Source: a virus (Duplodnaviria > Heunggongvirae > Uroviricota > Caudoviricetes). From it: 64,000 nt of DNA. Below the pieces are notes generated by a model. The model worked only from the letters and a program-made list of their open reading frames with translations, was not told the origin of the DNA and did no database searches. The DNA is taken from IMG/VR virus record IMGVR_UViG_2721755711_000002. One strand, given 5' to 3'. The translations under genes were made by a program, and so were the position numbers. Of this stretch, positions 3,815 to 59,348 are shown in pieces. The stretch's first letter is position 1. Each line of letters starts with the position of its first letter.

Positions 3815-3891
3815 TGATAAACCTCATTACAGATTTAAGGGTGAACAAATCCCTGTCATTGCTGACATATAAAAATGAAACCGAATATCAA

Positions 3892-6149: not shown

Positions 6150-6160
6150 CGTTAACCTCA

Positions 6161-6397: not shown

Positions 6398-6495
6398 ACG
6401 CCTCGGGCTGGCTACTTAACCCCTGACCACAGCCTGGTAACTCGAAGTATTGCCCTGCGTTCTGTGGGGCGGAGTGGGTTGGCATGAAAGGAAGG

Positions 6496-6534
6496 ATACC
6501 CATGGGTATCCAAAAAGTAAATACCCATGGGTAA
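6496..6534. promoter_or_regulatory. Two copies of palindrome ATACCCATGGGTAT (second 13/14), OL-like operator candidate
   Basis: Perfect 14-bp palindrome at 6496-6509 and near-copy at 6521-6534, between repressor 3' end and leftward early genes. Confidence 0.4.
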
Positions 6535-6577
6535 TTTTTTTTGAGGTGTCTTAACTGGTGATTGGTTGTTTGGTTAG

Positions 6578-6997
6578 TTATGATGCGTTTTGTGCTTTCT
6601 TTTTACGGATTTCTTCGTAGATCATATTGTAATACTGTTTTTTCTCTTCAAGAGTTTTTAATAAGTTATCCGCTTCACTTTCTGGCAGTTCGTCTAAGAG
6701 ATCTAAAAAAATACGTTGTCGTGGCGTTAGAACCCTTGTTTCATAATTGGAGGCTGTGTTCGTTGATGATGAAACGATACCATCCATCCATCCTCGGGGT
6801 AACCCAAAGGACTCTTCGATAATCTCCACCATATCATCAGCGATCCGTTTTTTTCCCTTTTTCCCCTCTGGGTACAACATTCTTGATACATAAGAAGGCT
6901 CGCGACCGATTTTTCTGGCTACGTTAACCGCTTTACCATCGCATTTCTCATCACGAATTTTGATGAGTTGCTGTCGTCTAAATTCATATTTGTCCAT
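6578..6997 (-). CDS. Prophage repressor-like DNA-binding protein (Rac RacR-like position; no S24 peptidase domain recognised)
   Basis: 139-aa ORF divergent from Cro-like gene; HTH-like segment VNVARKIGREPSYVSRML. Confidence 0.55.
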   Translation of the reverse strand: MDKYEFRRQQLIKIRDEKCDGKAVNVARKIGREPSYVSRMLYPEGKKGKKRIADDMVEIIEESFGLPRGWMDGIVSSSTNTASNYETRVLTPRQRIFLDLLDELPESEADNLLKTLEEKKQYYNMIYEEIRKKKAQNAS

Positions 6998-7030
6998 AGG
7001 TAAATAATAGATGCGATTACCGCAAGGTAA

Positions 7031-7069
7031 ACAACCTGTAGGTATTGACTTTTGTTTACCTGTGGGTAT
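7031..7069. promoter_or_regulatory. OR-like operator/promoter region with direct repeats CCTGTRGGTAT
   Basis: Repeats at 7035-7045 and 7059-7069 in the repressor-cro intergenic region; share GGGTAT half-site with the 6496 palindromes. Confidence 0.35.
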
Positions 7070-7097
7070 TCTTTGCTGTGTTTACTAAGGAGTAGCT

Positions 7098-7379
7098 ATG
7101 GAAGAATTAAGAATATTTCTCAATTCTCTTTCGTCAGATGAACAGCGTATGTTTGCATGCGAGTGTGGTACCAGCATCGGTTATCTAAGAAAGGCATTGA
7201 GTAAAGGTCAAGTGTTAGGGGCATCGTTATGTGTCCTTATTGAGCGAGCCAGTAATGGTGAAGTTACACGTCAGCAACTAAGGCCTTTTGATTGGATGAA
7301 TATTTGGCCCGAGCTGGAAGATACCAAAACGTTAACACAACCACTTTCTAGGAGCTTGATTCATGAAAATCAAGCATGA
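7098..7379 (+). CDS. Cro/YdaS-like small HTH regulator
   Basis: 93-aa ORF with AAGGAG site, divergent from repressor; followed by YdaT-like gene. Confidence 0.55.
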   Translation: MEELRIFLNSLSSDEQRMFACECGTSIGYLRKALSKGQVLGASLCVLIERASNGEVTRQQLRPFDWMNIWPELEDTKTLTQPLSRSLIHENQA

Positions 7380-7788
7380 ACACATCCGCATGGCGATGAA
7401 TGCCTGGGCGCATCCAGACGGTGAAAAAGTTCCGGCAGCTGAAATAACCCAGGCTTATTTTGAGTTGGGGCTGACGTTTCCTGAACTGTACGACGACAGC
7501 CATCCGGAAGCCCTGGGCCGTAACACCCAGAAAATTTTCCGCTGGGTGAAGAAAGACACTCCTGATGCGGTTAAAAAAATTCAGGCGTTGTTACCAGCGA
7601 TCGAAAAAGCAATGCCGCCTCCGCTGGTGGCCCGAATGCGCAGCCACAGTTCCGCTTATTTTCGGGAGTTGGTAGAGACGAAGGAACGGCTGGTGAAAGA
7701 TATTGATGATTTCGTTGCATCAGCGATCGTTCTGTTCGATCAGATGAATCGTGGTGGCCCGGCAGGAAACACTCTGGCTGTGCATTAA
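7363..7788 (+). CDS. ydaT: YdaT-like protein (Rac prophage toxin family)
   Basis: 141-aa ORF starting MKIKHEHI as recalled for E. coli YdaT; position after Cro/YdaS-like gene. Confidence 0.5.
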   Translation: MKIKHEHIRMAMNAWAHPDGEKVPAAEITQAYFELGLTFPELYDDSHPEALGRNTQKIFRWVKKDTPDAVKKIQALLPAIEKAMPPPLVARMRSHSSAYFRELVETKERLVKDIDDFVASAIVLFDQMNRGGPAGNTLAVH

Positions 7789-7801
7789 TTGGGTAATAAA
7801 T

Positions 7802-8311
7802 ATGAGTAATGACAAAAAATTGACACTGAGCGTTTACGAAAACAGTCCGCACATCTGGCGTGGCGGTTTATCTGATATGGAGCTGGCAGAGTGGTTGATA
7901 CATAAAGCTAATGCGCTGCTCTGGCGTTTGTCAGCCAGAGAACAGCGCAAGGAAACCAGAATAAAGCTGGCTGATGCAGAAGCGTGTGCCGGGCTTATTG
8001 AGGATTATACAAATCTTGGTATTTCTTCAGCAGAGAGTGATCCCATTCAGCCTCTGAGCAGGGAGTCAATCCAGCACGCTGGTTGTATGGCACATCTTGT
8101 AACTGCTCGTCAACATGAGGTGGGTATTGGATCACTTCCGGTGGGATATTCGCTGATTCCAGAGCTGGTTGAAGCAAGAAAATCAGTTCAGAAAAAGAGA
8201 GATGACGCACTTCAATTATTGAGAGAGCACTATGGCGCGATACCAGAATGCGAACAGCGTCGATACCCTGAAGGTTATGAATGGATGCAGTCTCTTTTTG
8301 AAGTTCGCTAA
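7802..8311 (+). CDS. Hypothetical early protein
   Basis: 169-aa ORF from MSNDKK; a similar-length antisense ORF exists, so strand is uncertain. Confidence 0.35.
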   Translation: MSNDKKLTLSVYENSPHIWRGGLSDMELAEWLIHKANALLWRLSAREQRKETRIKLADAEACAGLIEDYTNLGISSAESDPIQPLSRESIQHAGCMAHLVTARQHEVGIGSLPVGYSLIPELVEARKSVQKKRDDALQLLREHYGAIPECEQRRYPEGYEWMQSLFEVR

Positions 8312-8528
8312 TCAATATGTCGAGACGAAGGTATGTTTCGGCGCGCAGCCAGGCTCTGTAATCCGGGAGCATTTCGGGGCTGTTACACCAGCGGTTTGTT
8401 GCTGCAACATTTAATACATGAGCCTGATAAAGGCTTTTCAAAAAATACATGTCGAACCTCCTCTGGTTCTGTCGATTGGGCACCACAGATTATATCCGGA
8501 GGAAGGTTCGGCACCAGATGAGGTAGCC

Positions 8529-9638
8529 ATGCGTGATTACGCAAAAGTTTCTCCGCGATTCTGGCTGGGAGAAACGGGGAGAGAACTTAGAAAGGCGGGT
8601 GCAGAAGCGCAAGTTGTTGCTTTTTACCTGATGACATCCCCTCACGCAAATATGCTGGGTTTGTATTACCTGCCAGTTTTATACCTTGCTCATGAAACCG
8701 GGCTTGGTCTGGAAGGGGCTTCAAAGGGGCTTAAAAGGGCTGTTGAAGCTGGTTTTTGTAGCTATGACCATGATGCCGAGATGGTCTGGGTCCATGAAAT
8801 GGCAGCCTGGCAGGTTGGGGAAACGTTGAAGCCTGGCGATAACCGTTGTGCAGGTGTCAGGAATGAGTATGCATCATTACCTGAAAACGCTTTTCTGTCA
8901 GCGTTTTATGACAGATATAAAACGGATTTCCATCTGGATGTGAGGCGGAATAATAGCCGAAATTCGGTAAGGGGCTTCGAAGGGGCTTTTAAGGGGCTTC
9001 GAAGCCAAGAACAGGAGCAGGAGAAAGAACAGGAACAGGACAAAAACACTATGGCTCATGGTGAAAAAAACACCACGAACCAGGCAGGGGATGTTCAGAC
9101 CGTAAATTCTGGTCAGCCAGCAGGCACGACACCGGAAGCCGATTCGGCGTATGCGCTGAAAGCCGATTCGGGCGCTGTGCAGCAGGTGATGACCGCAGGG
9201 TCGGAGCAATCACACCAACTGCAGCAGCCTGAAGCCGATTCCGCCATTCAGCGGGAAGCCGATCGGGTAGTCCCGGAAAACACCGGGCGGCCTGTGGGAC
9301 GAGTGGATTATCCGGATGTGTTCGAACAGGTCTGGCGGGAATACCCGTTGCGTGCCGGGGCAAACCCGAAGAAATCCGCATTCAGTGCCTGGAAGGCCAG
9401 ATTGCGCGAGGGGGTGCCACCAGAGACCATGCTGGATGGTGTGAGGCGTTACGCGAGATACCTGGCGGCGACCGGGAAAGCGGGAACGGAATTTGTTCAG
9501 CGAGCGACGACGTTTTTTGGACCGGACCGGAATTTTGAAAACCCCTGGTTGCTCCCGGTAAGCGGCACGAACAACCAGCGTTGTGTGAATCACATTTCTG
9601 AACCGGACACCGAAATTCCACCAGGGTTCAGGGGATAA
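8529..9638 (+). CDS. Phage replication protein (replisome organizer, O-like) with conserved phage C-terminal domain
   Basis: 369-aa ORF from MRDYAKVSPRFW with GAGG site; both termini resemble prophage replication initiators. Confidence 0.55.
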   Translation: MRDYAKVSPRFWLGETGRELRKAGAEAQVVAFYLMTSPHANMLGLYYLPVLYLAHETGLGLEGASKGLKRAVEAGFCSYDHDAEMVWVHEMAAWQVGETLKPGDNRCAGVRNEYASLPENAFLSAFYDRYKTDFHLDVRRNNSRNSVRGFEGAFKGLRSQEQEQEKEQEQDKNTMAHGEKNTTNQAGDVQTVNSGQPAGTTPEADSAYALKADSGAVQQVMTAGSEQSHQLQQPEADSAIQREADRVVPENTGRPVGRVDYPDVFEQVWREYPLRAGANPKKSAFSAWKARLREGVPPETMLDGVRRYARYLAATGKAGTEFVQRATTFFGPDRNFENPWLLPVSGTNNQRCVNHISEPDTEIPPGFRG

Positions 9639-18379: not shown

Positions 18380-19921
18380 ATGCCAACAGTTCCAATTTCT
18401 ATGAGAAAACTTAAAGAAATTCTTAGGCTTAAATACGGTGTTGGACTCAGCCATCGACAAATTGGTCGTAGTCTTGCAATCTCCCCTTCCGTTGTATCCA
18501 GATATGCTAATCGGGCGGCTCAACTTGGCATAAAGCAGTGGCCCTTACCTACAGGATGGGATGATACAAAACTAAAACATGCGTTCCTTCAGACCCAGGT
18601 TAAGATGAAGAAGCACTCTCTGCCTGACTGGGCTACAGTACACCGGGAACTGCGTAATAAATGCGTGACGCTGCAGCTACTCTGGGAAGAATACTGTGAG
18701 CGTAATCCAGGCGGTTTTTACAGCTATAACCATTACTGCCGGATGTACCGTGAATGGCTCAAAACCACTTCACCATCAATGCGTCAGGTACATAAAGCTG
18801 GCGAAAAACTTTTCGTTGATTACTGTGGACCTACCGTTGGCGTTACCGACCCTGAGACCGGAGAAATAAGAACTGCTCAGGTCATCGTAGCTGTTCTCGG
18901 GGCATCAAGTTACACATGGGCAGAGGCCACCTGGTCTCAGCAGCTTGAAGACTGGGTGATGAGTCATGTTCGCTGCTTCCAGTGGTTGGGTGGCGTTCCT
19001 GAACTTGTTGTTCCGGACAATCTGAAAAGCGCCACATCCAGGGCATGTAAGTATGATCCTGACGTTAACCCTACCTACCAGCAGATGCTTGAGCATTATA
19101 ATGTCGCAGTTTTGCCTGCGCGGCCACGTAAACCGAAAGATAAAGCCAAAGCTGAAGTTGGCGTTCAGGTTGTTGAACGCTGGATCATGGCCCGAATCAG
19201 GCATGAGATCTTCTACAGCCTTGCATCGCTTAATCAGCGCATTCGGGAGTTGCTGGAAAGACTGAATAACAAAATAATGCAGAAGTTGGGTTATTCACGT
19301 GCAGAACTCTTCATCCAGCTTGATAAACCCGCACTGAAGCCTCTTCCTGAAGCCAGTTACAGTTACACCCTGGTGAAGAAAGTCAGAGTTCATGCCGATT
19401 ACCACGTGGAAATCGACAAACATTACTACTCGGTTCCATGTTCGCTGTTAGGCCAGCAACTGGAAGCATGGATCTCCGGAGAACTGGTAAGACTCTTCAA
19501 TCAGGGGCAGGAGGTTGCTGTGCACCCGCGCAAGCGTACTTATGGCTACAGTACCCGCAACGAGCACATGCCTGAAGCTCATCGACAGCATGCCACCTGG
19601 ACGCCAGAGCGTCTTCTGGAATGGGCGGGGCACATAGGCAGTGAAACTCATAGTTATGTGCTTCATATACTGAACTCTCGTCCACATCCGGAACAAAGCT
19701 ATCGCTTCTGCCTTGGACTCCTGAACCTTCATAAAAAATACAGTAAAGCCAGACTTAATGCAGCATGTGCAAGAGCTCTGAAAACAAAGGTATGGCGTCT
19801 GTCAGGTATTAAATCGATCCTGGAAAAAGGTCTGGATAAACAACCTGTTCAGGATCCAAAACCAGATCTGTTATCCACGATGGAACACGAAAACGTACGC
19901 GGCAGTGAGTATTACCACTGA
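18380..19921 (+). CDS. istA: IS21-family transposase IstA
   Basis: 513-aa ORF with N-terminal HTH and DDE integrase-like core. Confidence 0.85.
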   Translation: MPTVPISMRKLKEILRLKYGVGLSHRQIGRSLAISPSVVSRYANRAAQLGIKQWPLPTGWDDTKLKHAFLQTQVKMKKHSLPDWATVHRELRNKCVTLQLLWEEYCERNPGGFYSYNHYCRMYREWLKTTSPSMRQVHKAGEKLFVDYCGPTVGVTDPETGEIRTAQVIVAVLGASSYTWAEATWSQQLEDWVMSHVRCFQWLGGVPELVVPDNLKSATSRACKYDPDVNPTYQQMLEHYNVAVLPARPRKPKDKAKAEVGVQVVERWIMARIRHEIFYSLASLNQRIRELLERLNNKIMQKLGYSRAELFIQLDKPALKPLPEASYSYTLVKKVRVHADYHVEIDKHYYSVPCSLLGQQLEAWISGELVRLFNQGQEVAVHPRKRTYGYSTRNEHMPEAHRQHATWTPERLLEWAGHIGSETHSYVLHILNSRPHPEQSYRFCLGLLNLHKKYSKARLNAACARALKTKVWRLSGIKSILEKGLDKQPVQDPKPDLLSTMEHENVRGSEYYH

Positions 19922-19932
19922 TACGGGATCCA

Positions 19933-20682
19933 ATGATGAATCATCTTTACGAACAACTGACCGCACTTAAACTCACCGGCTTCCGTGATGCGCTTAAAAA
20001 GCAACTTGCTCAGCCGGGCACATACCAGGAGCTGGGCTTCGAAGAACGCCTGTCATTACTGACAGCAGAAGAACTAACCTGCCGTGAAAACAGGAAGGCA
20101 GAGCGTCTGATCAAACATGCACGGTTCAGACTTAATGCTGAGTTATCAAAGCTGGATTATCGTAACAATAGAGGGCTGGACAGGGCCCTCATCCGTTCAC
20201 TCAGTCAGGGAAACTGGTTAACCCTGAAACAAAATATTTTACTGACCGGGGCCACCGGCAGCGGTAAAACGTTCCTGGCATGTGCACTTGGTCATAATGC
20301 CTGCCGACAGGGATACAAGGTCTACTATTATCGCCTTAAAGCGCTGATGGAACAGTGCTATCAGGGGCATGCTGATGGAAGATACAGCAAACTTTTGACC
20401 AGGCTGAATAATAGCGATCTGCTGCTTCTGGATGACTGGGGGCTGGAACCTCTCTCATCAGAACAGCGTAGCGACCTGCTGGAAATAGTGGATCTGATGT
20501 ACCAACGAGGCTCAATCATCGTAGTGAGCCAGTTGCCGGTGGAAAACTGGTACAAAATGATCGGAGACTCCACACATGCGGATGCCATCCTAGATCGACT
20601 GGTTCATGGCAGTATCAAGATCGAACTTAAAGGAGAATCAATGCGGAAAATACAATCTCCGTTGACCGAAGGAGATCAGTGA
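19933..20682 (+). CDS. istB: IS21-family helper ATPase IstB
   Basis: 249-aa ORF with Walker A LTGATGSGKT and Walker B LLLLDDWG. Confidence 0.9.
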   Translation: MMNHLYEQLTALKLTGFRDALKKQLAQPGTYQELGFEERLSLLTAEELTCRENRKAERLIKHARFRLNAELSKLDYRNNRGLDRALIRSLSQGNWLTLKQNILLTGATGSGKTFLACALGHNACRQGYKVYYYRLKALMEQCYQGHADGRYSKLLTRLNNSDLLLLDDWGLEPLSSEQRSDLLEIVDLMYQRGSIIVVSQLPVENWYKMIGDSTHADAILDRLVHGSIKIELKGESMRKIQSPLTEGDQ

Positions 20683-20836
20683 AGGTAATTTAAAAACGGT
20701 TCTGTGAAAGTGACACGAACCGATCTCCATCGATGTTACTCACCGATCTCCTTCACGGTAATACGCACATAATAAAAAAATCCAGAATAAAGCGCAAAAT
20801 AAGGTGATACAGCACTTTATTTGACCACTTACGTTT

Positions 20837-21403
20837 TTATTCACTGATGGGCAGACTTCTGATGGTGTTCAGGTCATCCAGCCCCGCCAGTGTTTCCTTC
20901 ATCTCCCGCTGACGGCGATAAATCTCGTCATTGCGATCGACCTGCGCCTGAACCATTGCAGTAAGCAGTTCATCCAGTTGTTGCATTGACAACTTTACCT
21001 GCTGATTTTCCGCATCACCCCATACCATAGTTTTCCGTGCCGTGACTGATTTTGCTGACATCACCACCGGATAAAGGCGGGCCATTGAATCCGGTCCCCC
21101 GTTCCAGCTATGACCGTTCCATTCAAAAATGAATGGCTGCGCCTCCTGCTCTGTACGCCATGCTTCAATTTCCCGGCGTTTGGCTGCTTTTGCTGCTTCC
21201 AGCATCTCTGACGTGACGGTGAACGGCGTTATTTCTCCCCACTTGCCGCTTTGCAGTTCCTGCCAGACTCGCTGCCCTGTCTCTGCTGTATCCGTGGCAG
21301 TTGCCGTATACGGAACCGGTTCATCCATGCCATCAAACAACACCCCACAGTCAATCGCGCCATTTTCAAGATAACGCGCATTTTCGATGCGTTTTATTTC
21401 CAT
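20837..21403 (-). CDS. Tail fibre assembly protein (Tfa-like chaperone)
   Basis: ~189-aa ORF from MEIKRIENARYLENG, directly after side tail fibre gene. Confidence 0.65.
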   Translation of the reverse strand: MEIKRIENARYLENGAIDCGVLFDGMDEPVPYTATATDTAETGQRVWQELQSGKWGEITPFTVTSEMLEAAKAAKRREIEAWRTEQEAQPFIFEWNGHSWNGGPDSMARLYPVVMSAKSVTARKTMVWGDAENQQVKLSMQQLDELLTAMVQAQVDRNDEIYRRQREMKETLAGLDDLNTIRSLPISE

Positions 21404-34988: not shown

Positions 34989-35030
34989 TGAACCGCCCCG
35001 GGTTTCCTGGAGAGTGTTTTATCTGTGAAC

Positions 35031-35922
35031 TCAGGCTGCCAGATCATCGTTTCCGATGGAAGCATAATAAGCTTTTTCTGCTTCTGCCGGTGGGATATGG
35101 CCCAGCCTTTCCAGCAATCGTCGATTGTTATACCAGTCCACCCACGTGAGTGTGGACAGCTCCACTTCTGTCCGGTTTTTCCAGCGCTTACGGTGTATTA
35201 CCTCCGCTTTGTAAAGGCCATTGATGCTTCTCCGCCATCGCGTTGTCATACGAGTCACCAGTACTCCCTGTTGATGCCAGTAAGCCGGCTTCCTTAAGCC
35301 GCTGCGTGTAGGCCAGCGATACATACTGAGAACCTTTATCACTGTGGTGGATTGTGCCGGACGGCCGACGGGCCCACAACGCCTGCTCCAGTGCATCCAG
35401 CACGAATGCCGTTTCCATGGATGATGAGACCCGCCATCCCACGATGTATCCGGCGAACACATCAATGATGAACGCCACATAAACGAAGCCCTGCCATGTG
35501 TTTACCCAGGTAAAATCAGCCACCCACAACTGGTCAGGACGTTCTGCCACGAACTGACGGTTTACGCGGTCGCATGCGGCAACGGCTTTCCGGCTGACGG
35601 TAGTGCGGACCTTTTTACCCCGGAGAACACCGGCAAGTCCCATAACCGCCATGAGACGTGCCACAGTGCATCTGGCCACTCTGATACCTTCCCGTAACAA
35701 CTGACGCCAGACTTTACGCACACCGTATACCTGGTGATTTTCATCGTATACGCGCTGTATCTCTTTCTTCAGCCAGTCATCGCGCTGCGCACGGGCACTG
35801 CGTTTATCAGGATGATGTCGCTGTTGCTGACAGTGGTAATACGTTGACGGGGCAATATGCAGTTCGCTGCATACCGGTCCGACCCCGTACTGCTCACGCA
35901 GCTTATCCAGCAGTGGCATCAT
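35031..35922 (-). pseudogene. IS629 transposase orfB interrupted by a 1-nt insertion frameshift
   Basis: ORF pieces 35188-35922 and 35031-35480 are in different frames; extra base in GAGAAGC (plus-strand ~35227-35231) breaks the expected DNAMAESINGLYKAEV. Confidence 0.7.
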
Positions 35923-36245
35923 TTTTTCCAGAGGCGGTCGAACTCCGCCTTCGCAAAATAAGCGGAAGCCTGGCGAAGGATATCGTTACTGCGGCGCAGT
36001 TCACGATTTTCACGTTCCAGCTCTTTCAGACGCTGACGTTCAGCGGTGGTGAGCCCACCATCACCGCCCCCGGTATCCCGCTCATGCTGGCGAACCCAGA
36101 CACGCAGAGTCTCCGGCGTACAGCCAATTTTTGGGGCAATGGAACAAATTGCCGCCCACTGTGAATCATACTCATCCTGACTTTCCAGAACCATACGAAT
36201 CGCTCGCTGACGGACTTCGGGGGAAAAACGAGTATTTTTAGTCAT
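35919..36245 (-). CDS. IS629 transposase OrfA (HTH)
   Basis: 108-aa [24 protein letters not shown]... with leucine-zipper-like C-terminus. Confidence 0.85.
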
Positions 36246-36270
36246 CCTGTTTACCTCTTTCTCAGGGAGT

Positions 36271-36723
36271 TTAGTCTCCAGGATTCCCGGGACGGTTCAC
36301 ACCTCCCCGCGTGGACTCACGCCCGAACTGACGGGAGCCGGAGCGGATACGCACCTGTGACGATGACTGGATCACACTGCCGGACGTATCCCGCCCGAGG
36401 TTGATTTGTCCTGCCGCGACTTTCTCCAGAAAGCGGATGGCGTCCCGGTAGCGCATCTGAATTTCTTCTGAGCAGATACGGTAATCGGTCGCCAGGTGAT
36501 AACGGGCGATATCGCAGCAGTAACCCACCAGAATCCCCGGGCTGTCAGGCCACGGGGTCCGGTAACGCCCCACCAGATAGCCATCAATCTGGGCACTGGC
36601 GCGTGCAAGCGCGGAGGCCAGCTTTTCTTCGTCGATGAATCCCGTCATGTCTTCATCCGTCAGTGTGCGTGCCTCGCGTTCACTGAACGCCCTGATGAAC
36701 TGTTCCGGTGTGGCGTAAGACAT
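36271..36723 (-). CDS. Mu gp36-like protein; last ~9 codons replaced by IS629 end sequence
   Basis: 150-aa ORF whose 3' end runs into the IS inverted repeat. Confidence 0.55.
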
Positions 36724-44647: not shown

Positions 44648-45388
44648 TCACACCTGCGCTGTTTCTGCCTGCGCTTTTTCGATACGTGCGCAGGCGATAT
44701 CAAAATACTGGTTAGTCATTTCAATGCCGGTAAACCGTCCGCCACGGGCAAGTACAGGGATGGCGGTGGTGCCGCTTCCCATAAACGGATCGAGAACGTG
44801 CGCATCCGGTGCCAGCGGTTTAACCAGCTCGGCCATCAGCTGAACCGGCTTTGCGGTCATGTGCAGTTTTTCGGACGGGACAACACGCTGCGTAATCACA
44901 CCCGGGAACGGGCCACCGTGCGGGCATTTGTCGAGTTTTCCGTTGCTGCCCCAGACCACATACTCGGCCTGATGCCGGAAATAGCCGGTGTGTGGCGCAC
45001 GGGAAGCCTGCGTTTTATCCCAGACAACCAGACCGCGCCACAGCACACCACCGGCCTGAAATGCATCGGTAAGCGCCGGTAGTTGTCGCCAGTCACTGAA
45101 CACCATGAAATAACCGCCGGGATTCAGCCTGTGCAATGCATGAGATATCCACATGGAACACCAGAACGCCCAGCTGCGCTGGTCGCGGTTATCGCCGGTG
45201 AACTCGGCATACTGGGTGTGACCGACATACTTGTCCGAAGGGGCCATGCTGCGGTCTGATTTGTGTGTGCCACCACTGCTGTAAGGCGGGTCGGTAATGA
45301 CGGCATCAAAACGTTCAGATAACGCTGGCAGCACATCAAGAACATCACCGCAATACAACGTTGCGTTACCAATAATCTGTTTTTGCAT
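44648..45388 (-). CDS. Orphan DNA methyltransferase (beta-class N6-adenine or N4-cytosine)
   Basis: 246-aa ORF with DPPY motif early and FMGSGTT AdoMet motif late; no adjacent restriction endonuclease ORF. Confidence 0.85.
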   Translation of the reverse strand: MQKQIIGNATLYCGDVLDVLPALSERFDAVITDPPYSSGGTHKSDRSMAPSDKYVGHTQYAEFTGDNRDQRSWAFWCSMWISHALHRLNPGGYFMVFSDWRQLPALTDAFQAGGVLWRGLVVWDKTQASRAPHTGYFRHQAEYVVWGSNGKLDKCPHGGPFPGVITQRVVPSEKLHMTAKPVQLMAELVKPLAPDAHVLDPFMGSGTTAIPVLARGGRFTGIEMTNQYFDIACARIEKAQAETAQV

Positions 45389-46161: not shown

Positions 46162-46344
46162 TCAGTTCTGCGAACACTGCCGGATGCCGTCAATAATCCG
46201 GCAGACCTTTGCCGCCGCGTCAAACAGCTGGCCCGCTCTGTTAATGTCTGTGCATCCCACCGGAAGCAACATCACCAGAAACAGGGCCAGAACACAGCGC
46301 GCGGCTTTACGTGGCGTTCTGTGGGTCCAGTGCTGACGCGTCAT
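46162..46344 (-). CDS. Small lipoprotein (possible o-spanin-like lysis component)
   Basis: 60-aa ORF with lipobox LLPVGC, start overlaps endolysin stop; paralogue at 59166-59348. Confidence 0.55.
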   Translation of the reverse strand: MTRQHWTHRTPRKAARCVLALFLVMLLPVGCTDINRAGQLFDAAAKVCRIIDGIRQCSQN

Positions 46345-46886
46345 ACCGCTACGCGCTCCTTCAGCCAGCCATAAACAAACGATTCGTTAGCCTCGCGTTT
46401 CTCTGCCAGTTCCAGATAGCGGTCACCCTGCGTGCAGTTCAGGGCTGTCAGCATCACCCGTTCGCCGTCCTGACCGCGATTATTCAGGAAGGCGCGCAAT
46501 GCGCTGATGGTACGAGGTCCGATGCGTCCGTCTGCGTCCATATCCGGGTACAGCCTGCCGCGCAGGTTGAAAACGTTCAGCCAGCGTTGGAGCATTTTTG
46601 ACGCCACGGATGGCCCCATATTCACACCGGTATCACACAGCTCTGCGGCAATATCAGGGGATAATGCCGCAACCTGATCAAATCGCGGGCCATACCAGTA
46701 ATCGGCTTCAAGGATGTCCAGCGCCTGTTCGCGGGTTAACTCACGCATATCGCCACGGTATCCGTGGGCACGGGCGACTTTTTCCGTAATGCCCCATTTG
46801 GTCGGGCCGCCCTTATCATCCGGGTGATTGACGTAACCGCCTTCTTTGCCCAGGACTTCATCAAAAATTTCATCTTTTGATTTCAT
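46341..46886 (-). CDS. Endolysin (glycoside hydrolase family 108-like muramidase with peptidoglycan-binding domain)
   Basis: 181-aa ORF with N-terminal EGGYVNHPDDKGGPTKWGIT motif. Confidence 0.75.
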   Translation of the reverse strand: MKSKDEIFDEVLGKEGGYVNHPDDKGGPTKWGITEKVARAHGYRGDMRELTREQALDILEADYWYGPRFDQVAALSPDIAAELCDTGVNMGPSVASKMLQRWLNVFNLRGRLYPDMDADGRIGPRTISALRAFLNNRGQDGERVMLTALNCTQGDRYLELAEKREANESFVYGWLKERVAV

Positions 46887-47172
46887 GTGGATGCCTCAGT
46901 AACGAAAGGATTTTTGACAAATTCCCGTGCGCCCACACGATAAGCGCACAGAAAACCAGATTCAGCGCCACAACCAGCCAGCTGGAGTGCGTGTATGTAC
47001 CGGACAGCCAGCGGAACGGGATGATGATGTAGCCGAGCATCAGCCAGTACGCCAGCCAGGTAATCATCGGTTTATGCGCCGCACCGTGGCGGCGATACAC
47101 AAACAACCCCAGCACAATGGCGAGGCACAGCCAGACGTTCACGATACCGGCAAGGCTACTTTCCATTTCCAC
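46870..47172 (-). CDS. Lysis-associated multi-pass membrane protein (holin/antiholin candidate)
   Basis: 100-aa ORF with hydrophobic helices between holin-like gene and endolysin. Confidence 0.45.
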   Translation of the reverse strand: MEMESSLAGIVNVWLCLAIVLGLFVYRRHGAAHKPMITWLAYWLMLGYIIIPFRWLSGTYTHSSWLVVALNLVFCALIVWAHGNLSKILSLLRHPHEIKR

Positions 47173-47548
47173 CCCCTCCGCCGCGCAGTCTGGAAAACAG
47201 GCCGAACAGCGATGAAATTTCCTGTTGATAAAGAAAAGTCAGTATCTTGATGGATAAAGCAGAGACACCGACCGCACACAATGCATCGAGCGGTTTGTCG
47301 TTATAGTGGGTCAGCCACTGCATCAGTGACGCAGCCACGCCAGCCCCCAGAACGCCAACCACAAACGCGACGAGCAGGTGAATAGCCATTCGCCATACCG
47401 GGATTTCTTTCTGCTGAGTGACAACAAAAAGCGCCCCGGCAAACGCGCCCACCACGACCCCGAAATCGGTATTGGTGAGAAGGCCAAACACACTGGCACC
47501 ACCGATGGTGACTGCCACAGCTCCGCCGCCTGATAAGGGTTCAGACAT
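47156..47548 (-). CDS. Holin-like membrane protein
   Basis: 131-aa ORF, Gly/Ala-rich helices; homologue of the truncated gene at 17956; upstream region also similar. Confidence 0.5.
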   Translation of the reverse strand: MSEPLSGGGAVAVTIGGASVFGLLTNTDFGVVVGAFAGALFVVTQQKEIPVWRMAIHLLVAFVVGVLGAGVAASLMQWLTHYNDKPLDALCAVGVSALSIKILTFLYQQEISSLFGLFSRLRGGGGGNGK

Positions 47549-47730
47549 GAGTTTCTCCTGTAAATCTGAGCCACTGACGGCCCGTAAATAACACCCTGTC
47601 AAAGGCACAAAAGCCTTTTGCAGGGCGCTATCCCTTAAGGTGCCTTGTGGTCTGAGTGGACAGGGTAAACGGTCTGGTGTGGTGGGTACTGCTGGGGGAG
47701 TTCAGCACCCCGCGGCGGCGGGGTGATAAA

Positions 47731-48035: not shown

Positions 48036-48503
48036 TTAATCAAAAAGCCCCACCTGAGTGGGGCTTTTCAGCGAAGTCTGTTTTTGTCGTCGGTGTATCA
48101 GCTGCCATGCGTACCGGTCTGAAATGCCGTAACGGGGACAGAGCAGTGCCAGCGCCTGCCGGTGTGAGCATCCGTCTTTTACATGCTGCTGTAAATCAGC
48201 CATAAAACGGGTGTTACGCAGGGCACGTAATGCATGATCGCAACGGGGAATGTAAAACGGAGCACCGCCAAGAAAGCGGATCAGTTTGTTGATTTCGTCT
48301 TCGGTCAGCACATCATGTAACAGGGCATGGACACCGCCGGTTCGTTCGGCGTGTGCGCCGGTTTTACCGCTTAACGTCACGCCACCAAAAGAACGGATTA
48401 ACCGGGTCAGGGCGGGGAAGCCAATCACGCTAATCAGTTGCTGCACGGAATCAGGCAACAGTGCCTGCGCATCGCGAAGATCTGTTTCACTGAAGGTCTG
48501 CAT
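48036..48503 (-). CDS. mor: Mor-family transcriptional activator (middle operon regulator)
   Basis: 155-aa ORF; C-terminal HTH region resembles Mu Mor/C family; conserved position before lysis and late genes. Confidence 0.7.
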   Translation of the reverse strand: MQTFSETDLRDAQALLPDSVQQLISVIGFPALTRLIRSFGGVTLSGKTGAHAERTGGVHALLHDVLTEDEINKLIRFLGGAPFYIPRCDHALRALRNTRFMADLQQHVKDGCSHRQALALLCPRYGISDRYAWQLIHRRQKQTSLKSPTQVGLFD

Positions 48504-49516: not shown

Positions 49517-49825
49517 TTATTCTCCTGAAATCAGTCCTGAACGGATTACTGTTTTTGCAATATGCGCCCGTAATTGCTGCGTTCCGTGGTATTTGATTGC
49601 CACATCGCGTAATTTATTAACCAGCTCCCTGAGCTGATGCTCTTTTGCTCCCGGTGTCACCGGAATGATTCCTGCTCTCCGGTATTCCTGAAGCTCCAGC
49701 AGGGACTGCCGTAAGAGCGTCCACCACTCTCTGTCTACAATCGGCCCGCGCATATCAAGCATTTTGTCAGCATCGGCAATCAGTCTGGTCAGGCCCTTAT
49801 CGCTTATTCTGGTTTGCTGGTTCAC
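49517..49825 (-). CDS. Hypothetical early protein
   Basis: 102-aa ORF. Confidence 0.4.
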   Translation of the reverse strand: MNQQTRISDKGLTRLIADADKMLDMRGPIVDREWWTLLRQSLLELQEYRRAGIIPVTPGAKEHQLRELVNKLRDVAIKYHGTQQLRAHIAKTVIRSGLISGE

Positions 49826-50112
49826 TGCGCCGCCTCCTGTTCATTTTTTTCACTCCGGTATACCAAAATCACGACATCACCTACGGGGATAACGCGGGTT
49901 GGTTCTCCCGGCTCTATGCTGTCGATATCGAAGGCCTCAAAGAACTCATTCATCGCCTTCTGCTGCTGCGTCTGTTTACGGTGCTTATTCCATGTTTTCA
50001 GGAATACAAGGGACAGCCACATCCCGGCGCGGAGCATGATGTAACACCAACCGAGAAGAGCGATGCCTGCATTCATGGCTACATCTATCGTTATCGTTTT
50101 ATCAATGACCAT
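49822..50112 (-). CDS. Small membrane protein
   Basis: 96-aa ORF with hydrophobic segment. Confidence 0.4.
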   Translation of the reverse strand: MVIDKTITIDVAMNAGIALLGWCYIMLRAGMWLSLVFLKTWNKHRKQTQQQKAMNEFFEAFDIDSIEPGEPTRVIPVGDVVILVYRSEKNEQEAAQ

Positions 50113-53931: not shown

Positions 53932-54171
53932 TCATTGCCATACGACGGTGCAGCCGTCGATACAGGATGTTTTCACCACGCGGCGCAGGCCGCTGAATGT
54001 CTGGATGATTTCCGTTACCGGCCATACAGGACCACCCACAGGCGGGCAGGCATAAACCACAGGTAAACGGTGATGTTGCCCCGTTACACGACCGCCGGTG
54101 GTGTGGATGGCCACACGGGCACGGGAACGGACGGCATTAATGGTCTGCTTTTCCATCATTTTGTTCTCCAT
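53932..54171 (-). CDS. Hypothetical early protein
   Basis: 79-aa ORF just downstream of B. Confidence 0.4.
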   Translation of the reverse strand: MENKMMEKQTINAVRSRARVAIHTTGGRVTGQHHRLPVVYACPPVGGPVWPVTEIIQTFSGLRRVVKTSCIDGCTVVWQ

Positions 54172-55064
54172 CAGTGAATTAACATTTCTGAATATTTATC
54201 AATGGCCTGCACACTGACCGGTGCATCGCTGATATCACAAATCCGGTACACACCACGCGCCAGCTTGAACAGACGACGGGCATTACCCAGCGAACGTGTG
54301 TAAAGTGCCTCACCAATTTCCGGGTCCGCCGCTTCCGGCATCATGTCTGTGGCAATCTTGTTAAAATCTTCCTGCGTCAGCGTATCGCCCAGGTTAAGCG
54401 CCAGCGCCACGCGGCTGTATAATTGAGCGAACTCACCACAACGGCCCTTAAGGTTAATCAGAAGGTGAGGCATACCCGCCAGGACAATCCCGATACCCGC
54501 TTTGTCATGCAGACGGCGCAATACCTCCAGTGCACGATAGGGGAGCAGTTCAGCCTCATCCACCATCAGCAGACGACCTGACCCACGCAGTTCACGCACA
54601 CAGGCATCAATCTTCTCGCGAATATCGCCGTGAACCTTTATGCCCAACTGGCGGCACAGTTCATCGAGTAACTTTCTGGCCGTATAGCCAATATCGGCTT
54701 CAATGAGCACTACATCCCGGTTTCTGGCGGCATATTCACTCAGAATCATGCTTTTACCCAGGCCCGCCGCGCCATACAGAACGCAAATATCACACTCCAG
54801 ATGGGCGTAGGTCAGTACTTCCAGCCCTTTGGCAGCCATGCCGGTGGTGACAAATCGCACTTTAATACGGCGGTTGTTTTCCTTTTCCCATTCACGGGTC
54901 ACAAAGGCAGAAATGCGTTCTTCAATATCAGCCATATCGCCCTGATATTTGCCCTGCAAATACTGGTTGATAACAGCGCTGCTACGACCAATAGCACGGG
55001 CAACGTGGGTCTGCGTAAAGCCGCGACGGGCCATTACGTCATTTAATTGCGTAATTAAACTCAT
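54171..55064 (-). CDS. B: DNA transposition protein B (AAA+ ATPase, Mu B-like)
   Basis: 297-aa ORF with N-terminal HTH and Walker A GAAGLGKS; follows transposase A. Confidence 0.85.
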   Translation of the reverse strand: MSLITQLNDVMARRGFTQTHVARAIGRSSAVINQYLQGKYQGDMADIEERISAFVTREWEKENNRRIKVRFVTTGMAAKGLEVLTYAHLECDICVLYGAAGLGKSMILSEYAARNRDVVLIEADIGYTARKLLDELCRQLGIKVHGDIREKIDACVRELRGSGRLLMVDEAELLPYRALEVLRRLHDKAGIGIVLAGMPHLLINLKGRCGEFAQLYSRVALALNLGDTLTQEDFNKIATDMMPEAADPEIGEALYTRSLGNARRLFKLARGVYRICDISDAPVSVQAIDKYSEMLIH

Positions 55065-55082: not shown

Positions 55083-57125
55083 TTAACGATTATTTGTGCC
55101 GTTTTTCTTTAAATTGCGCTCACGGTCAGACACGAATAAATAAAGTTCTTCTTTTTCCTTTTTCTCCTGGCGTTCCAGTCCATATCCCAGATTAAACTCA
55201 GGTTTCTGCGTAATAGCCGGGGTAAGTTCGCGTTTAGCCTCTTCGATTTTCTGCGTGGCCCGTGCAATGCGGCCTCGGGCGCGTTTCTCCTGCTGCTGTT
55301 CGATAACGGCTTTCGGGAACGCATCGACCTTGTTACCGTTCCAGATGGCATCGCAGATATAAGAACCGTCCATTCGCCTGACAATCACGCTGTTTGCGTC
55401 GTGAATGTCGTAACAAACCCTGACTTCATTTCCGTGCTCTGCTGCCAGTTCTGTGGAGAAATAGATGTTTCTGAATAACACCACTTCACCGCGTCGCACC
55501 GTGCAGATGCTTTCCGGTCGGAACATTTCATGCAGTTCTTCCGGCGACAGCATGTCGATTTCAGCCTTTTGCTCTTTTATCAGTTTCCGGCGATACGCTG
55601 CCGGGCTGTAATGTTCGCCATCCTCTTTGCGGGGAAGGCTGCTGTGTGGTCGGTTGTTATACCGTTTCACCTCCAGCTCTATTGCGGCCAGCAGTTGCTC
55701 AAAGGTGGGGACTTCTCCCATCGCTTTAACCTGCCGTTTTGTCAGCTCTTTCCCTTTGTGGGTGGCCTTAATGGCTGACTGTGTGATGCGTTGCTGCATC
55801 ATCACCGTTTCCTTGTCTGCATTTTTTGAGCAGTACGTCTGGAAACTCAGGGCCACATCTTTGGGTATTCCTTTGTTTGCCCGTTCTATTACCCCGCGCC
55901 CCTGCGGGTTACCAGGTATCCCCGTGTGATGCTCCACACCCAGTCGGGGCAGAATCCCGGTAATATCGGCATCAAGCACCCGGTTTTTTTCACCGCCCCC
56001 GTTATCGGAGTAATAAATCAGCGGTATTCCGTGTTGTGACATGCCATGACGCAATGCATCAGCAACGGCTATCACGTTCTCCGACAGGGACAGCGACCAG
56101 CCCACAATAAAGCGTTGCCCCGCATCCATAACCAGCGTCACTTCTGGCCGGAATGTATTCCCGGTGGCGGGGCTGAATGCCATCAGTTTCATACAGTGAC
56201 CATCCCCGACCCATACCGCATTAACCGGTAATGTGCTCCAGTCGCGCCGCACAAAGGGATTGAGCGAACGCCAGGCTGAACCGGTGGAGCGGAAACGCTC
56301 CTTCACAATCACCGGGACGTTGCTTAACACCCGTCTTACTGCGTGAACTGAAGGCAGTGCTGCCAGCATTCCTGCGTCATTCGCGTGCTTTTCATGCCAC
56401 CAGGCTGAAAACTCGCGATACGCATATTCAACGGTCGGGCGCTTCCATGAGCGATAGAACATAAAGAAATCGCTCAACCACCAGACCTGCTCCCACGGTG
56501 TTCCCTTATGATGACCGGGAGCCAGTAACGCCAGTAACTGATTGGCATCACCGCGCGCCATCAACCAGGCGGAATACCATTCCTGCAAACTTCCCCAACT
56601 GACGCCAGTTCGCTTACCCTGTCTGGCGTTTGCAGTGCCTGCGGCCTCAATAATGCGGTCAGGTAACGCCCCCATGCGCACACCATCAATGATGTGTTTT
56701 ACTGCTGCCGTCCTGGACATTCCTGCGTATTCACGCAGTTTATGCACTTCGGTAGCCAGCAATATCCGCGCATCAGCGATGGCCTTTTGCTTGTCGGTCA
56801 GTGCCTGAACTTCGCGTAATGCCAGTTCCGGGCATTTGACCATCACTTCCAGTTCATCGCGAACGGTGACGTTTTTAACTGCCTTCTGCTCAACCACGGC
56901 GGGCAGTTGCGCATCTTCCAGAACCTGATGAGTCAGGCGCTTACGTAAAACTTTCTGCGCTTCAGTGGGCAGGCAGTCGATGTGATACTCGAATGCTTTG
57001 GTGCCTTCACGCTTGCGCTTCCATTCCGGGTGCGTCTCTGTGATCCGATTGAGCGTCCAGCGCACCCCCTGAACTGTACCGGGCAAACCAGGAAGACCGG
57101 CCAGCTCATTGGCTGAATAAAACAT
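55083..57125 (-). CDS. A: Mu-type DDE transposase A
   Basis: 680-aa ORF; N-terminus ANELAGLPGLPGT resembles MuA; ner-A-B order. Confidence 0.9.
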   Translation of the reverse strand: MFYSANELAGLPGLPGTVQGVRWTLNRITETHPEWKRKREGTKAFEYHIDCLPTEAQKVLRKRLTHQVLEDAQLPAVVEQKAVKNVTVRDELEVMVKCPELALREVQALTDKQKAIADARILLATEVHKLREYAGMSRTAAVKHIIDGVRMGALPDRIIEAAGTANARQGKRTGVSWGSLQEWYSAWLMARGDANQLLALLAPGHHKGTPWEQVWWLSDFFMFYRSWKRPTVEYAYREFSAWWHEKHANDAGMLAALPSVHAVRRVLSNVPVIVKERFRSTGSAWRSLNPFVRRDWSTLPVNAVWVGDGHCMKLMAFSPATGNTFRPEVTLVMDAGQRFIVGWSLSLSENVIAVADALRHGMSQHGIPLIYYSDNGGGEKNRVLDADITGILPRLGVEHHTGIPGNPQGRGVIERANKGIPKDVALSFQTYCSKNADKETVMMQQRITQSAIKATHKGKELTKRQVKAMGEVPTFEQLLAAIELEVKRYNNRPHSSLPRKEDGEHYSPAAYRRKLIKEQKAEIDMLSPEELHEMFRPESICTVRRGEVVLFRNIYFSTELAAEHGNEVRVCYDIHDANSVIVRRMDGSYICDAIWNGNKVDAFPKAVIEQQQEKRARGRIARATQKIEEAKRELTPAITQKPEFNLGYGLERQEKKEKEELYLFVSDRERNLKKNGTNNR

Positions 57126-57361: not shown

Positions 57362-57543
57362 TAGGTTACCCTTAAAAGTTATCCGTGCGGATAACACCGC
57401 CGTGTTATCCCTTCGGATATAAGTATTGATCCATATGTAACCCATGTAAAGCAAAAATAGCCTTTTCTTTGTATTTTCTTTTTGCTTTTGGTCTTTATAT
57501 GGTTTTGTGATTGAAAATCAATTGGTTAAATAGGAAAGGAAAA
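57362..57543. promoter_or_regulatory. Divergent c/ner operator-promoter region
   Basis: AT-rich intergenic region with repeated CTTTT motifs between divergent ner and c genes. Confidence 0.4.
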
Positions 57544-58191
57544 ATGACAAAAAATGATGACGCTTTTTCTTTAGTTGACCGAGGAAAAGAAAGTTTTAGA
57601 GAGCGTTTAGTAAAACTAATAGGTGGGCGCAGTGTCAGAACTGCCGCGAGCGACTGGGGTATCCCTCCTTCAACCTTAAACAACTACATCCATAAAGGAA
57701 CAGAACCCTCTTTTAAAATAGCCTGCCTTATCTCAGATAAAGAGCGGGTGAGTTTAAATTGGCTCGCTTATGGTGAGGAACTCACCGCCACAGCAAACTC
57801 TTTATCAAACCAAACAGCGCAGCCTTCTCCCGATATTACAAACGAGCTAGCTAACGAGTTATTGAAAAGAGCGTCCACAGAAGATAAAGAACTATTGATA
57901 AATGCAATATGTGATATGGGTATCAAAGGAATCCTAAAACGTCTGCAACAACCCACTAGGCAAGCGAAACAAGCCGCTAACACGCTGGAGGAGCAAGAGA
58001 ATGCTATCCAAAGTCTGAATATCAGGAAATCACTTAAGGATGCAATCCGAGTAGCATTACATGGAAACGAAGATACTGACAGAGAGATTTTGCGAATTGT
58101 TGAATCTCATATACGACCACAATCGCCGGGTGATCAGACCGATGTCACACCGGAGCAAGAAACAAAATCTGTAAGTAAAAAATCAGCATGA
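57544..58191 (+). CDS. c: Mu-type repressor c
   Basis: 216-aa ORF divergent from ner with AGGAAAGGA site; N-terminal DNA-binding-like region. Confidence 0.7.
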   Translation: MTKNDDAFSLVDRGKESFRERLVKLIGGRSVRTAASDWGIPPSTLNNYIHKGTEPSFKIACLISDKERVSLNWLAYGEELTATANSLSNQTAQPSPDITNELANELLKRASTEDKELLINAICDMGIKGILKRLQQPTRQAKQAANTLEEQENAIQSLNIRKSLKDAIRVALHGNEDTDREILRIVESHIRPQSPGDQTDVTPEQETKSVSKKSA

Positions 58192-58496: not shown

Positions 58497-58755
58497 GGTA
58501 ACAGAAGACGGTCGTCATGTTGAGGAAGTGCATGTCCTGGGGGATATGTACCGCCTGGAGTTCTATCCGCGTAACACTCATCTTGCAGCGAAGATTGAGT
58601 ATTGCCGGGACGGGAATATTCCGTGCATTCCTGTAGAAAAAGAGGATGAAGCCTACATCATCACACTGAACGGTGACACGGCGCGTTGTATCTGTCGTGG
58701 CGACAGTGAAGCCCGGAATGAAATAGCAAGATGTCGCGCCCATACAGATAAATAA
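58480..58755 (+). CDS. Hypothetical Cys-containing small protein; 5' end uncertain, possibly a gene remnant
   Basis: 91-codon ORF (TTG in track; internal ATG at MYRLEF) with own terminator. Confidence 0.35.
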   Translation: MITTPQVTEDGRHVEEVHVLGDMYRLEFYPRNTHLAAKIEYCRDGNIPCIPVEKEDEAYIITLNGDTARCICRGDSEARNEIARCRAHTDK

Positions 58756-58826: not shown

Positions 58827-59009
58827 ATGGAGAAGTATAAACGAATTCTGTTTAGGTTGACTATGAAAAACGGCCTTGAATTGAAAGCGCCTGTAACTGA
58901 TGACATCAGCAGAGCGGTGGCTTTTGCCATTAAGTGGGTGGCTGTCGGTATCGCTGTGTCTCCGATTCTGTATGGGATGGCAAAATTGATCATTGCTGTG
59001 AAATCGTAA
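58827..59009 (+). CDS. Small membrane protein
   Basis: 60-aa ORF with C-terminal hydrophobic helix; GGGAG site upstream. Confidence 0.35.
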   Translation: MEKYKRILFRLTMKNGLELKAPVTDDISRAVAFAIKWVAVGIAVSPILYGMAKLIIAVKS

Positions 59010-59026: not shown

Positions 59027-59161
59027 ATGTCAGATAGCATTATAAAACTGGCGCGAATTCTCTGTGTGGTTGTTGGCCTTTCATTTTCAGCAATGTTGGT
59101 TGCCATTTTCATTTCCACCGCCTGGCGAGTATTGAGCTTATCCGGATTGATTGGTGGATAG
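59027..59161 (+). CDS. Small hydrophobic peptide (44 aa)
   Basis: Short ORF MSDSIIKLARILCVVVGLSF... directly upstream of lipoprotein gene. Confidence 0.25.
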   Translation: MSDSIIKLARILCVVVGLSFSAMLVAIFISTAWRVLSLSGLIGG

Positions 59162-59165
59162 TGAG

Positions 59166-59348
59166 ATGAAGCGAAAACACTGGACACACAGAATGCCGCG
59201 AACGGCGGCGAAATGGGTACTGGTAGCGATACTGGTGCCTTTTTTCCTGGTGGGATGCGTCAGCCTGGATAAGGCGCGCCAGCTTTTCGATACGGCTTCT
59301 CAGGTCTGCGAAATTGTCGACGGTGTTCGACAGTGTCTGCAGAGCTGA
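59166..59348 (+). CDS. Small lipoprotein, paralogue of 46162-46344
   Basis: 60-aa ORF; lipobox FLVGC; mature-part motifs QLFD.A..VC.I.DG.RQC shared with paralogue. Confidence 0.55.
   Translation: MKRKHWTHRMPRTAAKWVLVAILVPFFLVGCVSLDKARQLFDTASQVCEIVDGVRQCLQS

Follow-up and report, generated by a model that had tools for sequence, protein, structure and literature searches.

A lysis module common to a lambdoid prophage and the Mu-like prophage nested within it, in long-diverged versions

The 64,000-nucleotide (nt) stretch of DNA studied here (the window), from the IMG/VR virus record IMGVR_UViG_2721755711_000002, holds a Mu-like transposable prophage nested inside a lambdoid prophage (Table 1), and each of the two carries all or part of a lysis module made up of a leader of ~85-95 nt, genes for membrane proteins of the Phage_holin_8 and Phage_holin_3_7 families, a soluble endolysin that is interchangeably of the GH108 or the M15 type, and a lipoprotein of 60 amino acids (aa). 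We propose, with a probability of roughly 80%, that the two copies are long-diverged versions of one mobile module of enterobacterial temperate phages, one version carried in lambdoid and the other in Mu-like lineages, and that they are alike through modular exchange long ago, rather than through anything that happened in this genome. Finding two copies together is ordinary phage mosaicism; each version can already be found, with annotation, in many Escherichia coli genomes. The window is a worked example of such mosaicism, in the form of a lysis module common to lambdoid and transposable phages, and it also documents prophage decay through nesting and through deletion mediated by insertion sequences (IS).

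A sequence-only reading of the window had described the holin-like proteins of the two prophages (47156-47548, minus strand, and 17956-18249, plus strand) as ~60% identical, and this is borne out by composition-adjusted BLASTP, which aligns them with 54/90 identical residues (60%, expect value (E) 4e-33). The same figure had been given for the two lipoproteins, whose homology stands (a gapless alignment from end to end, E 5e-26) at a lower identity of 33/60, or 55%. The DNA upstream of the two holin genes was also rightly described as similar, the motif GTGCCTTTGAC.GGGTG...TACGGGCCG...ATTTACAGGAGAAA being found in both copies. As for the lambdoid holin gene, given as a truncated counterpart at 17956-18246, it is indeed truncated, but its homology reaches only to ~18218 (codon 88), and the tail of the open reading frame (ORF), up to the stop codon at 18247-18249, is read from the end of the insertion sequence ISEc12. 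Comparison of the Mu-like cassette with intact lambdoid cassettes gives 69.6-71% nt identity across ~1.3 kb, the soluble endolysin gene included. Between the phage types the Phage_holin_8 proteins are 64% identical, the Phage_holin_3_7 proteins 51% and the lipoproteins 53-55%, with 87% for the GH108 endolysins (the Mu-like protein against that of the lambdoid cassette of E. coli R1); the leader has 82% nt identity against 67% for the holin coding DNA when the Mu-like copy is set beside an intact lambdoid relative. These identities, together with a gene order that is constant across the loci surveyed below, suggest that the module is old in both lineages.

It is hardly credible that the similarity stems merely from the hydrophobic or low-complexity make-up of small membrane proteins. 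Such an explanation would draw on the shortness of both proteins and their abundance of G, A, V and L, but the E values of 4e-33 and 5e-26 already allow for composition, the DNA identity of about 70% over 1.3 kb takes in a gene for a soluble protein, and the leader, at 82% identity, is non-coding. A check for low complexity found the alignment not confined to hydrophobic stretches: identity between the holins spans the N-terminus (MSEPLSG) and the loops (TDFG, WR, LDAL) as well as the membrane segments, and is therefore not merely that of hydrophobic low-complexity sequence, so that the homology of the lysis modules stands.

The Mu-like copy of the module is intact. Its first membrane protein matches Pfam PF16931 (E 3e-25) and phrog_198 'holin' (E 9e-42); the second, whose gene overlaps the 3' end of the first and whose RefSeq relatives begin two codons later, matches PF05449 (E 7e-17) and phrog_217 'holin' and is annotated in E. 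coli E2348/69. The endolysin combines a GH108 muramidase domain (PF05838) with PG_binding_3 (PF09374), and its N-terminus, MKSKDEIFDEVLGKEGG, is hydrophilic, with no hydrophobic, signal-anchor-release (SAR) or secretion segment. With PF16931 and PF05449 genes upstream of a PF05838 and PF09374 protein that has no secretion signal, the predicted holins and the endolysin form what is, by its families, a holin/soluble-endolysin type of cassette.

The Mu-like cassette recurs far from any lambdoid neighbour. A Mu-like prophage in the eutC gene of E. coli O127:H6 E2348/69 shares 96-97% DNA identity with that of the window over the cassette and most late genes and has the same order (Mor, an ORF of 92-101 aa, Phage_holin_8, Phage_holin_3_7, GH108 endolysin, lipoprotein, DUF1804), but differs in its insertion site, in having both ends intact, in its tail-fibre genes and in the absence of the IS3-family insertion. 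This internal position, from Mor through the cassette to DUF1804 and terminase, is found in the eutC prophage and in 20 IMG/VR contigs; the Phage_holin_8 protein is 100% identical to those of many IMG/VR Mu-like contigs, and the cassette was matched in 137 of 5,426 complete E. coli genomes. A megablast search of 50,697 phage records with the Mu-like cassette gave no match, and by this measure the cassette appears to be known from prophages and not from isolated Mu-like phages. The lambdoid version, for its part, occurs in many E. coli lambdoid prophages and in the Stx2e phage phiP27. Since the same Mu-like cassette lies at unrelated sites and lambdoid versions lie elsewhere, each phage would have brought its own copy into this genome, and the earlier suggestion that a lysis cassette and its upstream sequence are common to two unrelated phage types is upheld. 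A local origin, in which the Mu-like phage took its lysis genes from the lambdoid prophage of its host or in which the two copies are one split cassette, would fit the physical position of the Mu-like prophage inside the lambdoid lysis region, but we consider it very improbable: the Mu-like copy is complete, lies >10 kb from either end of its prophage and is on the opposite strand, its holins and lipoprotein are just 51-64% identical to the lambdoid ones, and identical Mu-like cassettes stand at unrelated sites with no lambdoid prophage beside them. The G+C content of the cassette (55.5%) is nearer to that of the Mu-like late region (57%) than to that of the lambdoid background (47-50%), a resemblance too weak to give a direction of transfer.

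How the two prophages came to be nested can be followed by comparison with intact relatives. In E. coli R1 and the IMG/VR locus L085 the lambdoid order is Phage_holin_8, Phage_holin_3_7, GH108 endolysin, phrog_33497, phrog_1115, phrog_4906 and lipoprotein, which places phrog_33497 between endolysin and lipoprotein. The left end of the Mu-like prophage, located against the E2348/69 prophage (...CCCCACA at 58497; reading inward TGTGGGGTAGTG..., TGTGGGG... plus repeats), abuts codon 8 of this gene at a junction read against the intact relatives L085 and L005, and we therefore infer that transposition brought the Mu-like phage into the lambdoid lysis region, at a point between its endolysin and lipoprotein genes. 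The alternative raised in the sequence-only reading, that the Mu-like phage inserted within a homologous cassette, is thus literally true (58497, codon 8) but is not the source of the similarity; the landing inside the lambdoid cassette is real but coincidental. At the right end of the Mu-like prophage the tip is gone, and one inverted end-repeat is left (20778-20810), adjoining ISEc12. Copies of this element in ~1,900 E. coli genomes match it at 99.7-99.9% identity; homology to lambdoid relatives stops at 18222, and homology to the other IS copies begins at 18219. Missing at ISEc12 are ~1.34 kb of lambdoid DNA (the rest of the Phage_holin_8 gene, the Phage_holin_3_7 and endolysin genes and the start of phrog_33497) and, measured against the end of the E2348/69 prophage, ~55 bp of the Mu right end, and a single ISEc12-associated deletion, later than the Mu insertion, would be the simplest account of both losses. 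By these junctions the lambdoid holin gene was evidently truncated by ISEc12 and not by Mu. The lambdoid lysis module would thus be dead, and the Mu-like module is intact. MuA transposase, MuB and Mor are all found in the Mu-like prophage, with repeats at the left end and one inverted repeat at the right, and both prophages appear defective, because the lambdoid one has lost its holins and endolysin and the Mu-like one has lost an end and carries an IS.

The wider distribution of the module was surveyed in 80 IMG/VR loci, 20 of them Mu-like and 60 other, with the lipoprotein scored in the 74 loci whose sequence continues for 1.5 kb or more past the endolysin gene. The order Phage_holin_8, Phage_holin_3_7, endolysin, lipoprotein is constant across these loci. 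The endolysin is of the GH108 type in 11 Mu-like and 31 other loci and an M15 peptidase in 9 and 27. Across phage types endolysin identity is 85-98% by one comparison and 85-93% by another, against ~50-64% for the holins and lipoprotein, and the endolysin seems to have been exchanged more recently than its neighbours. The alternation of GH108 and M15 is seen in both backgrounds, with holins and lipoprotein that are lineage-specific (for example, L008 3658-4035 versus L013 3663-4205). The lipoprotein is retained in 72/74 loci, abutting the endolysin gene in 20/20 Mu-like and 22/53 other loci, and the two loci that have no lipoprotein resemble L001, where a Bor lipoprotein gene is downstream of the endolysin. 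A scan of contigs with a single holin sequence returned one further locus, L007 (3474-4718; labelled Vagococcus sp. WN89Y), with Phage_holin_8, Phage_holin_3_7 and GH108 genes of lower G+C in the same order, a holin 47-49% identical, and a contig end before any lipoprotein. Beside it lies a fragment of an IS-type integrase. The contig is assigned to a Gram-positive genus, which may reflect contamination or mislabelling.

The conserved DNA directly 5' of the holin start had been taken for shared regulatory sequence. Shared it is, but it looks like a transcribed leader with hairpins and not like a shared promoter. What precedes it varies, with at least five unrelated contexts represented (an AraC-like gene, tRNA-Gly, stx2e/L27, further accessory genes, and the Mor/101-aa ORF of Mu-like phages), and its own sequence is conserved in all of these; no sigma-70-like promoter was predicted in the upstream region of either the Mu-like or the lambdoid copy, and the promoters particular to each phage must be located further upstream than the shared DNA. 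The predicted fold of the Mu-like leader has an energy of -34.7 kcal/mol and a z-score of -4.24, and that of the lambdoid leader a z-score of -2.96. An alignment covered 26 distinct leaders; each hairpin of the lambdoid copies is followed by 5-9 U, and a terminator scan of the window reads the second lambdoid hairpin as GGGCC-N6-GGCCC and then TTTTTT; the lambdoid leader looks like two tandem intrinsic terminators, as far as such predictions go. The Mu-like leader keeps the hairpins but continues after them with UUAC and AGAUUU, the U-runs having gone, and the scan found no terminator-like site in its region. Across the survey a second hairpin followed by a T-run is present in 57/60 non-Mu loci and 0/20 Mu-like ones. 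The leader is absent from the Mu-like locus L023 and the non-Mu locus L027, and a search of Rfam with both leaders returned nothing beyond chance. In Mu-like-specific DNA ~65 nt upstream of the leader lies a GGGG-N9-CCCC dyad, GGGGTGCTGAACTCCCC (47695-47711, minus strand), which is conserved in Mu-like relatives and could be either a candidate site for the Mor-family activator or a terminator of the upstream gene. On the lambdoid side, a PemK/MazF-like toxin-domain protein (16213-16692) and an AraC-family regulator (16858-17778) with a terminator hairpin of its own (17803-17822) lie between the Q gene and the leader.

From what is known of these families, late transcription would read through the leader in both phage types. 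In the lambdoid phages it would be traversed by RNA polymerase modified by the Q antiterminator, and in the Mu-like phages transcription would come from a Mor/C-type activated promoter upstream of it. One of the two membrane proteins would then act as the holin and the other as a second holin, an antiholin or a modulator, and holes in the inner membrane would let the cytoplasmic endolysin out, leaving the lipoprotein, presumably anchored in the outer membrane, as the only candidate for the outer-membrane step. The hairpins and U-runs of the lambdoid leader would stop polymerase that is not modified by Q, such as that arriving from upstream accessory genes, and this shielding may have been lost in phages that use a Mor/C-type activator and have no Q.

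Several results weigh against this account, at different points along it. For the local history, no relative was found that shares the tail-fibre module of the window and has an intact Mu right end, and the ~55-bp loss at that end depends on the comparison with the E2348/69 end. In the leader, hairpin covariation falls short of significance, the observed values being reached in 72-86 of 500 shuffles, and the conservation of structure may be plain conservation of sequence; the late promoter of the Mu-like phage was not located in the scan of the upstream region. As to the lipoprotein, no ORF resembling an inner-membrane spanin (i-spanin) was found in or near the cassette or anywhere along the coding strand of the Mu-like prophage, and the mature part, at 30 aa, is too short for an outer-membrane spanin (o-spanin) that has to bridge the membranes. 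Because partner and length are both wanting we do not classify it as a spanin; judged by its sequence it cannot be a classical spanin subunit, and it may have no part in lysis at all.

The lipoprotein belongs to phrog_7528, which is annotated as being of 'unknown function', and no model in Pfam or NCBIfam matches it. It has a basic N-region and a VGC lipobox with the cysteine at position 31 (...LPVGC31-TD in the Mu-like copy, ...FLVGC31-VS in the lambdoid one); the homologous start of the lambdoid copy is the ATG at 59166 and not the TTG at 59151 of the mechanical ORF list. In 11 family members G30-C31 is invariant, as are Cys48 and Cys57, and the residue at +2 is Thr, Val, Ser or Ala (Thr in the Mu-like copy) and never Asp, which predicts sorting to the outer membrane. 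An exhaustive search with a hidden Markov model yielded, at 50% identity, 20 clusters that include frameshifted fragments, and a homologue search with the lipoprotein found close relatives only; the family appears to be small and enterobacterial. AlphaFold2 returned a low-confidence model (predicted local distance difference test score 59) with a helix at 34-59 only, and it was not used further.

The protein does resemble an o-spanin in its lipobox cysteine, its sorting signal and its gene position, which adjoins the endolysin in 42 loci. A unimolecular spanin of the T1 gp11 type was considered and rejected, the sole hydrophobic segment (13-36) being the signal peptide and the C-terminal 30 aa polar or amphipathic. 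As an i-spanin partner phrog_4906 was likewise rejected, being essentially all hydrophobic over its 43 aa and missing from the Mu-like loci. On the coding strand of the Mu-like prophage just one more membrane-protein candidate turned up, a 96-aa ORF (49822-50112, minus strand) in the early/semi-essential region. Its N-terminal membrane segment is followed by basic residues and it is remote from the cassette, which makes an i-spanin role unlikely. In Kongari et al. (2018; PMC6139136) the phiP27 homologue is entered as a 'separated' o-spanin whose periplasmic part has 30 residues, and is paired with a 64-aa i-spanin, a pair noted there as the shortest known at 62 residues combined. The i-spanin so listed is a TTG-start ORF (L006 3670-3864; record positions 20348-20542) embedded in antisense orientation in an ORF of 90 aa (3654-3926, minus strand). 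The window holds no homologue of it, nor is it conserved beside the lipoprotein in other phages, and the annotation is probably spurious.

A role in lysis at the outer membrane is our best guess for the lipoprotein, at odds a little better than even, because its tight linkage to the endolysin gene persists through endolysin swaps in both phage types. It is possible, though we think it doubtful, that it is instead a gene for lysogenic conversion or exclusion, like Bor, Cor or Llp, carried promoter-distally in a lysis operon that has no dedicated outer-membrane step. The absent i-spanin and the short mature part would suit such a gene, and so would the 31/53 non-Mu loci in which 90-1,220 nt with small accessory ORFs separate endolysin from lipoprotein, the terminator hairpin that ends one of these intervening ORFs in the window, and the likeness of the two lipoprotein-less loci to L001 with its Bor gene; yet an accessory gene would not be expected to stay with both holin genes through endolysin swaps in both phage types (72/74), nor to have a start that overlaps the endolysin stop or lies within 17 nt of it in 42 loci, spacing that suggests coupled late expression, and its lipobox and +2 residue fit outer-membrane sorting as in o-spanins, the class to which the phiP27 homologue was assigned (PMC6139136). 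Going beyond the general role in lysis, one may speculate that phrog_7528 is a stand-alone outer-membrane lysis factor, a lipid-anchored helix of 30 aa capable of a disulfide and working with no spanin partner, and, secondarily, that the module carries its own tandem-terminator leader, disabled in phages that have no Q; we rate this specific proposal as rather unlikely.

Were it true, the stand-alone lipoprotein would add to spanins and cationic disruptins a third way of dealing with the outer membrane, one found in a widespread family of lambdoid, Stx2e and Mu-like prophages of E. coli. A single small protein serving the outer-membrane step in place of spanins is described for phage phiKT, whose gp28 'disruptin' (bioRxiv 10.1101/515445) is a cationic peptide and not a lipoprotein, whereas the mature lipoproteins here have a net charge of ~+1 and -1. 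The only outer-membrane candidate of a common E. coli lysis module falls outside the definition of a spanin, and the module could reveal either a new way of breaching the outer membrane or lysis that needs no dedicated factor. The question bears on the release of Stx2e toxin from phiP27-type prophages; a 2025 paper shows that a holin downstream of stx2e is needed for that release (PMC12571312), which, the holin family being unstated, is a lead only.

Among the closest known systems is that of phiP27 (holins L28 and L29, endolysin L30, and the L32 region), which has the same leader and both holin families in the same order, along with a lipoprotein (20679-20858) that shares 55% identity with the Mu-like copy and is a near relative of the lambdoid one. 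It differs in that its endolysin is an M15 peptidase and not a GH108 enzyme, the phage is not transposable, and the lipoprotein gene lies ~480 nt past the endolysin with other ORFs between. The S-R-Rz/Rz1 genes of lambda share the outline of a late holin, soluble endolysin and outer-membrane lipoprotein in that order, with Q-dependent antitermination upstream, but belong to unrelated protein families; the module described here has two holin-family genes and no Rz-like i-spanin, and its mature lipoprotein of 30 aa is predicted to be helical and is rich in cysteine, whereas Rz1 has 40 aa and is rich in proline. On the map of Mu the lysis genes stand between the Mor/C-type late activator, which they directly follow, and the packaging genes, the genome position that the cassette holds here, but the gene set of Mu is entirely different (the SAR endolysin Lys, the spanins gp23/gp23a and the releasin gp25), the endolysin of the present cassette being soluble and predicted to depend on a holin, with no spanin pair.

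Table 1. Features of the window (positions are those of the whole stretch; strand in brackets)
Feature	Position	Remarks
Lambdoid prophage, first part	1-18218	Integrase, exonuclease VIII-like, DUF968, RusA, Q, accessory genes, leader, holin gene
Lambdoid Q antiterminator gene	15403-16098	
Lambdoid leader	17862-17955 (+)	Hairpin 1 at ~17864-17907, then U7; hairpin 2 at 17915-17930, then U6; then ribosome-binding site
Lambdoid Phage_holin_8 gene, codons 1-88 only	17956-18218 (+)	Cut by ISEc12
ISEc12 (IS21 family)	18219-20777 (+)	Complete; istA 18380-19921, istB 19933-20682
Mu-like transposable prophage	20778-58497 (-)	Reversed relative to window
Mu-like tail fibres	from 20837	
IS3-family element inside Mu-like prophage	34989-36299	1,311 bp
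Mu-like lysis cassette including leader	46162-47631 (-)	
Mu-like lipoprotein precursor (phrog_7528)	46162-46344 (-)	60 aa; ATG overlaps endolysin stop (ATGA)
Mu-like soluble endolysin	46341-46886 (-)	181 aa; GH108 muramidase (PF05838) and PG_binding_3 (PF09374)
Mu-like Phage_holin_3_7 family protein	46870-47172 (-)	98-100 aa; 3 membrane segments
Mu-like Phage_holin_8 family membrane protein	47156-47548 (-)	130 aa; ~4 predicted membrane segments; intact
Mu-like leader	47549-47631 (-)	Long two-part hairpin at ~47588-47631; short GC hairpin at 47568-47583; ribosome-binding site AGGAG
Mor-family activator of Mu-like prophage	48036-48503 (-)	
Mu-like B (MuB ATPase)	54171-55064 (-)	Pfam
Mu-like transposase A	55083-57125 (-)	Pfam
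Mu-like repressor-like gene	57511-58191 (-)	
Lambdoid prophage, second part	58498 onward	Reaches Nu1/gpA terminase genes
phrog_33497 gene, 3' part (from codon 8/9)	58498-58755 (+)	Mu insertion target; clear terminator hairpin after
phrog_1115 small membrane protein	58827-59009 (+)	60 aa
phrog_4906 small membrane protein	59030-59161 (+)	43 aa; nearly all hydrophobic
Lambdoid lipoprotein (phrog_7528)	59166-59348 (+)	60 aa; lipobox LVGC; last surviving lambdoid module gene

The gene blocks of the Mu-like prophage run, in window order, from tail fibres through sheath, head, terminase, DUF1804, lysis cassette, Mor, B and A to the repressor-like gene. A gene for an N6/N4 DNA methyltransferase (44648-45388, minus strand) lies between the DUF1804 and large terminase genes, as it does in E2348/69. 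Relative to that prophage the IS3-family insertion stands near the boundary of the gp436/DUF1834 gene; the element carries an rve transposase (35188-35922) and an ALIL frameshift pseudoknot (RF01497; 35848-35964), and its junctions have an apparent overlap of 3 bp. The genes phrog_1115 and phrog_4906 are found between endolysin and lipoprotein in some lambdoid cassettes and never in Mu-like ones, and could encode lysis modulators or be accessory genes.

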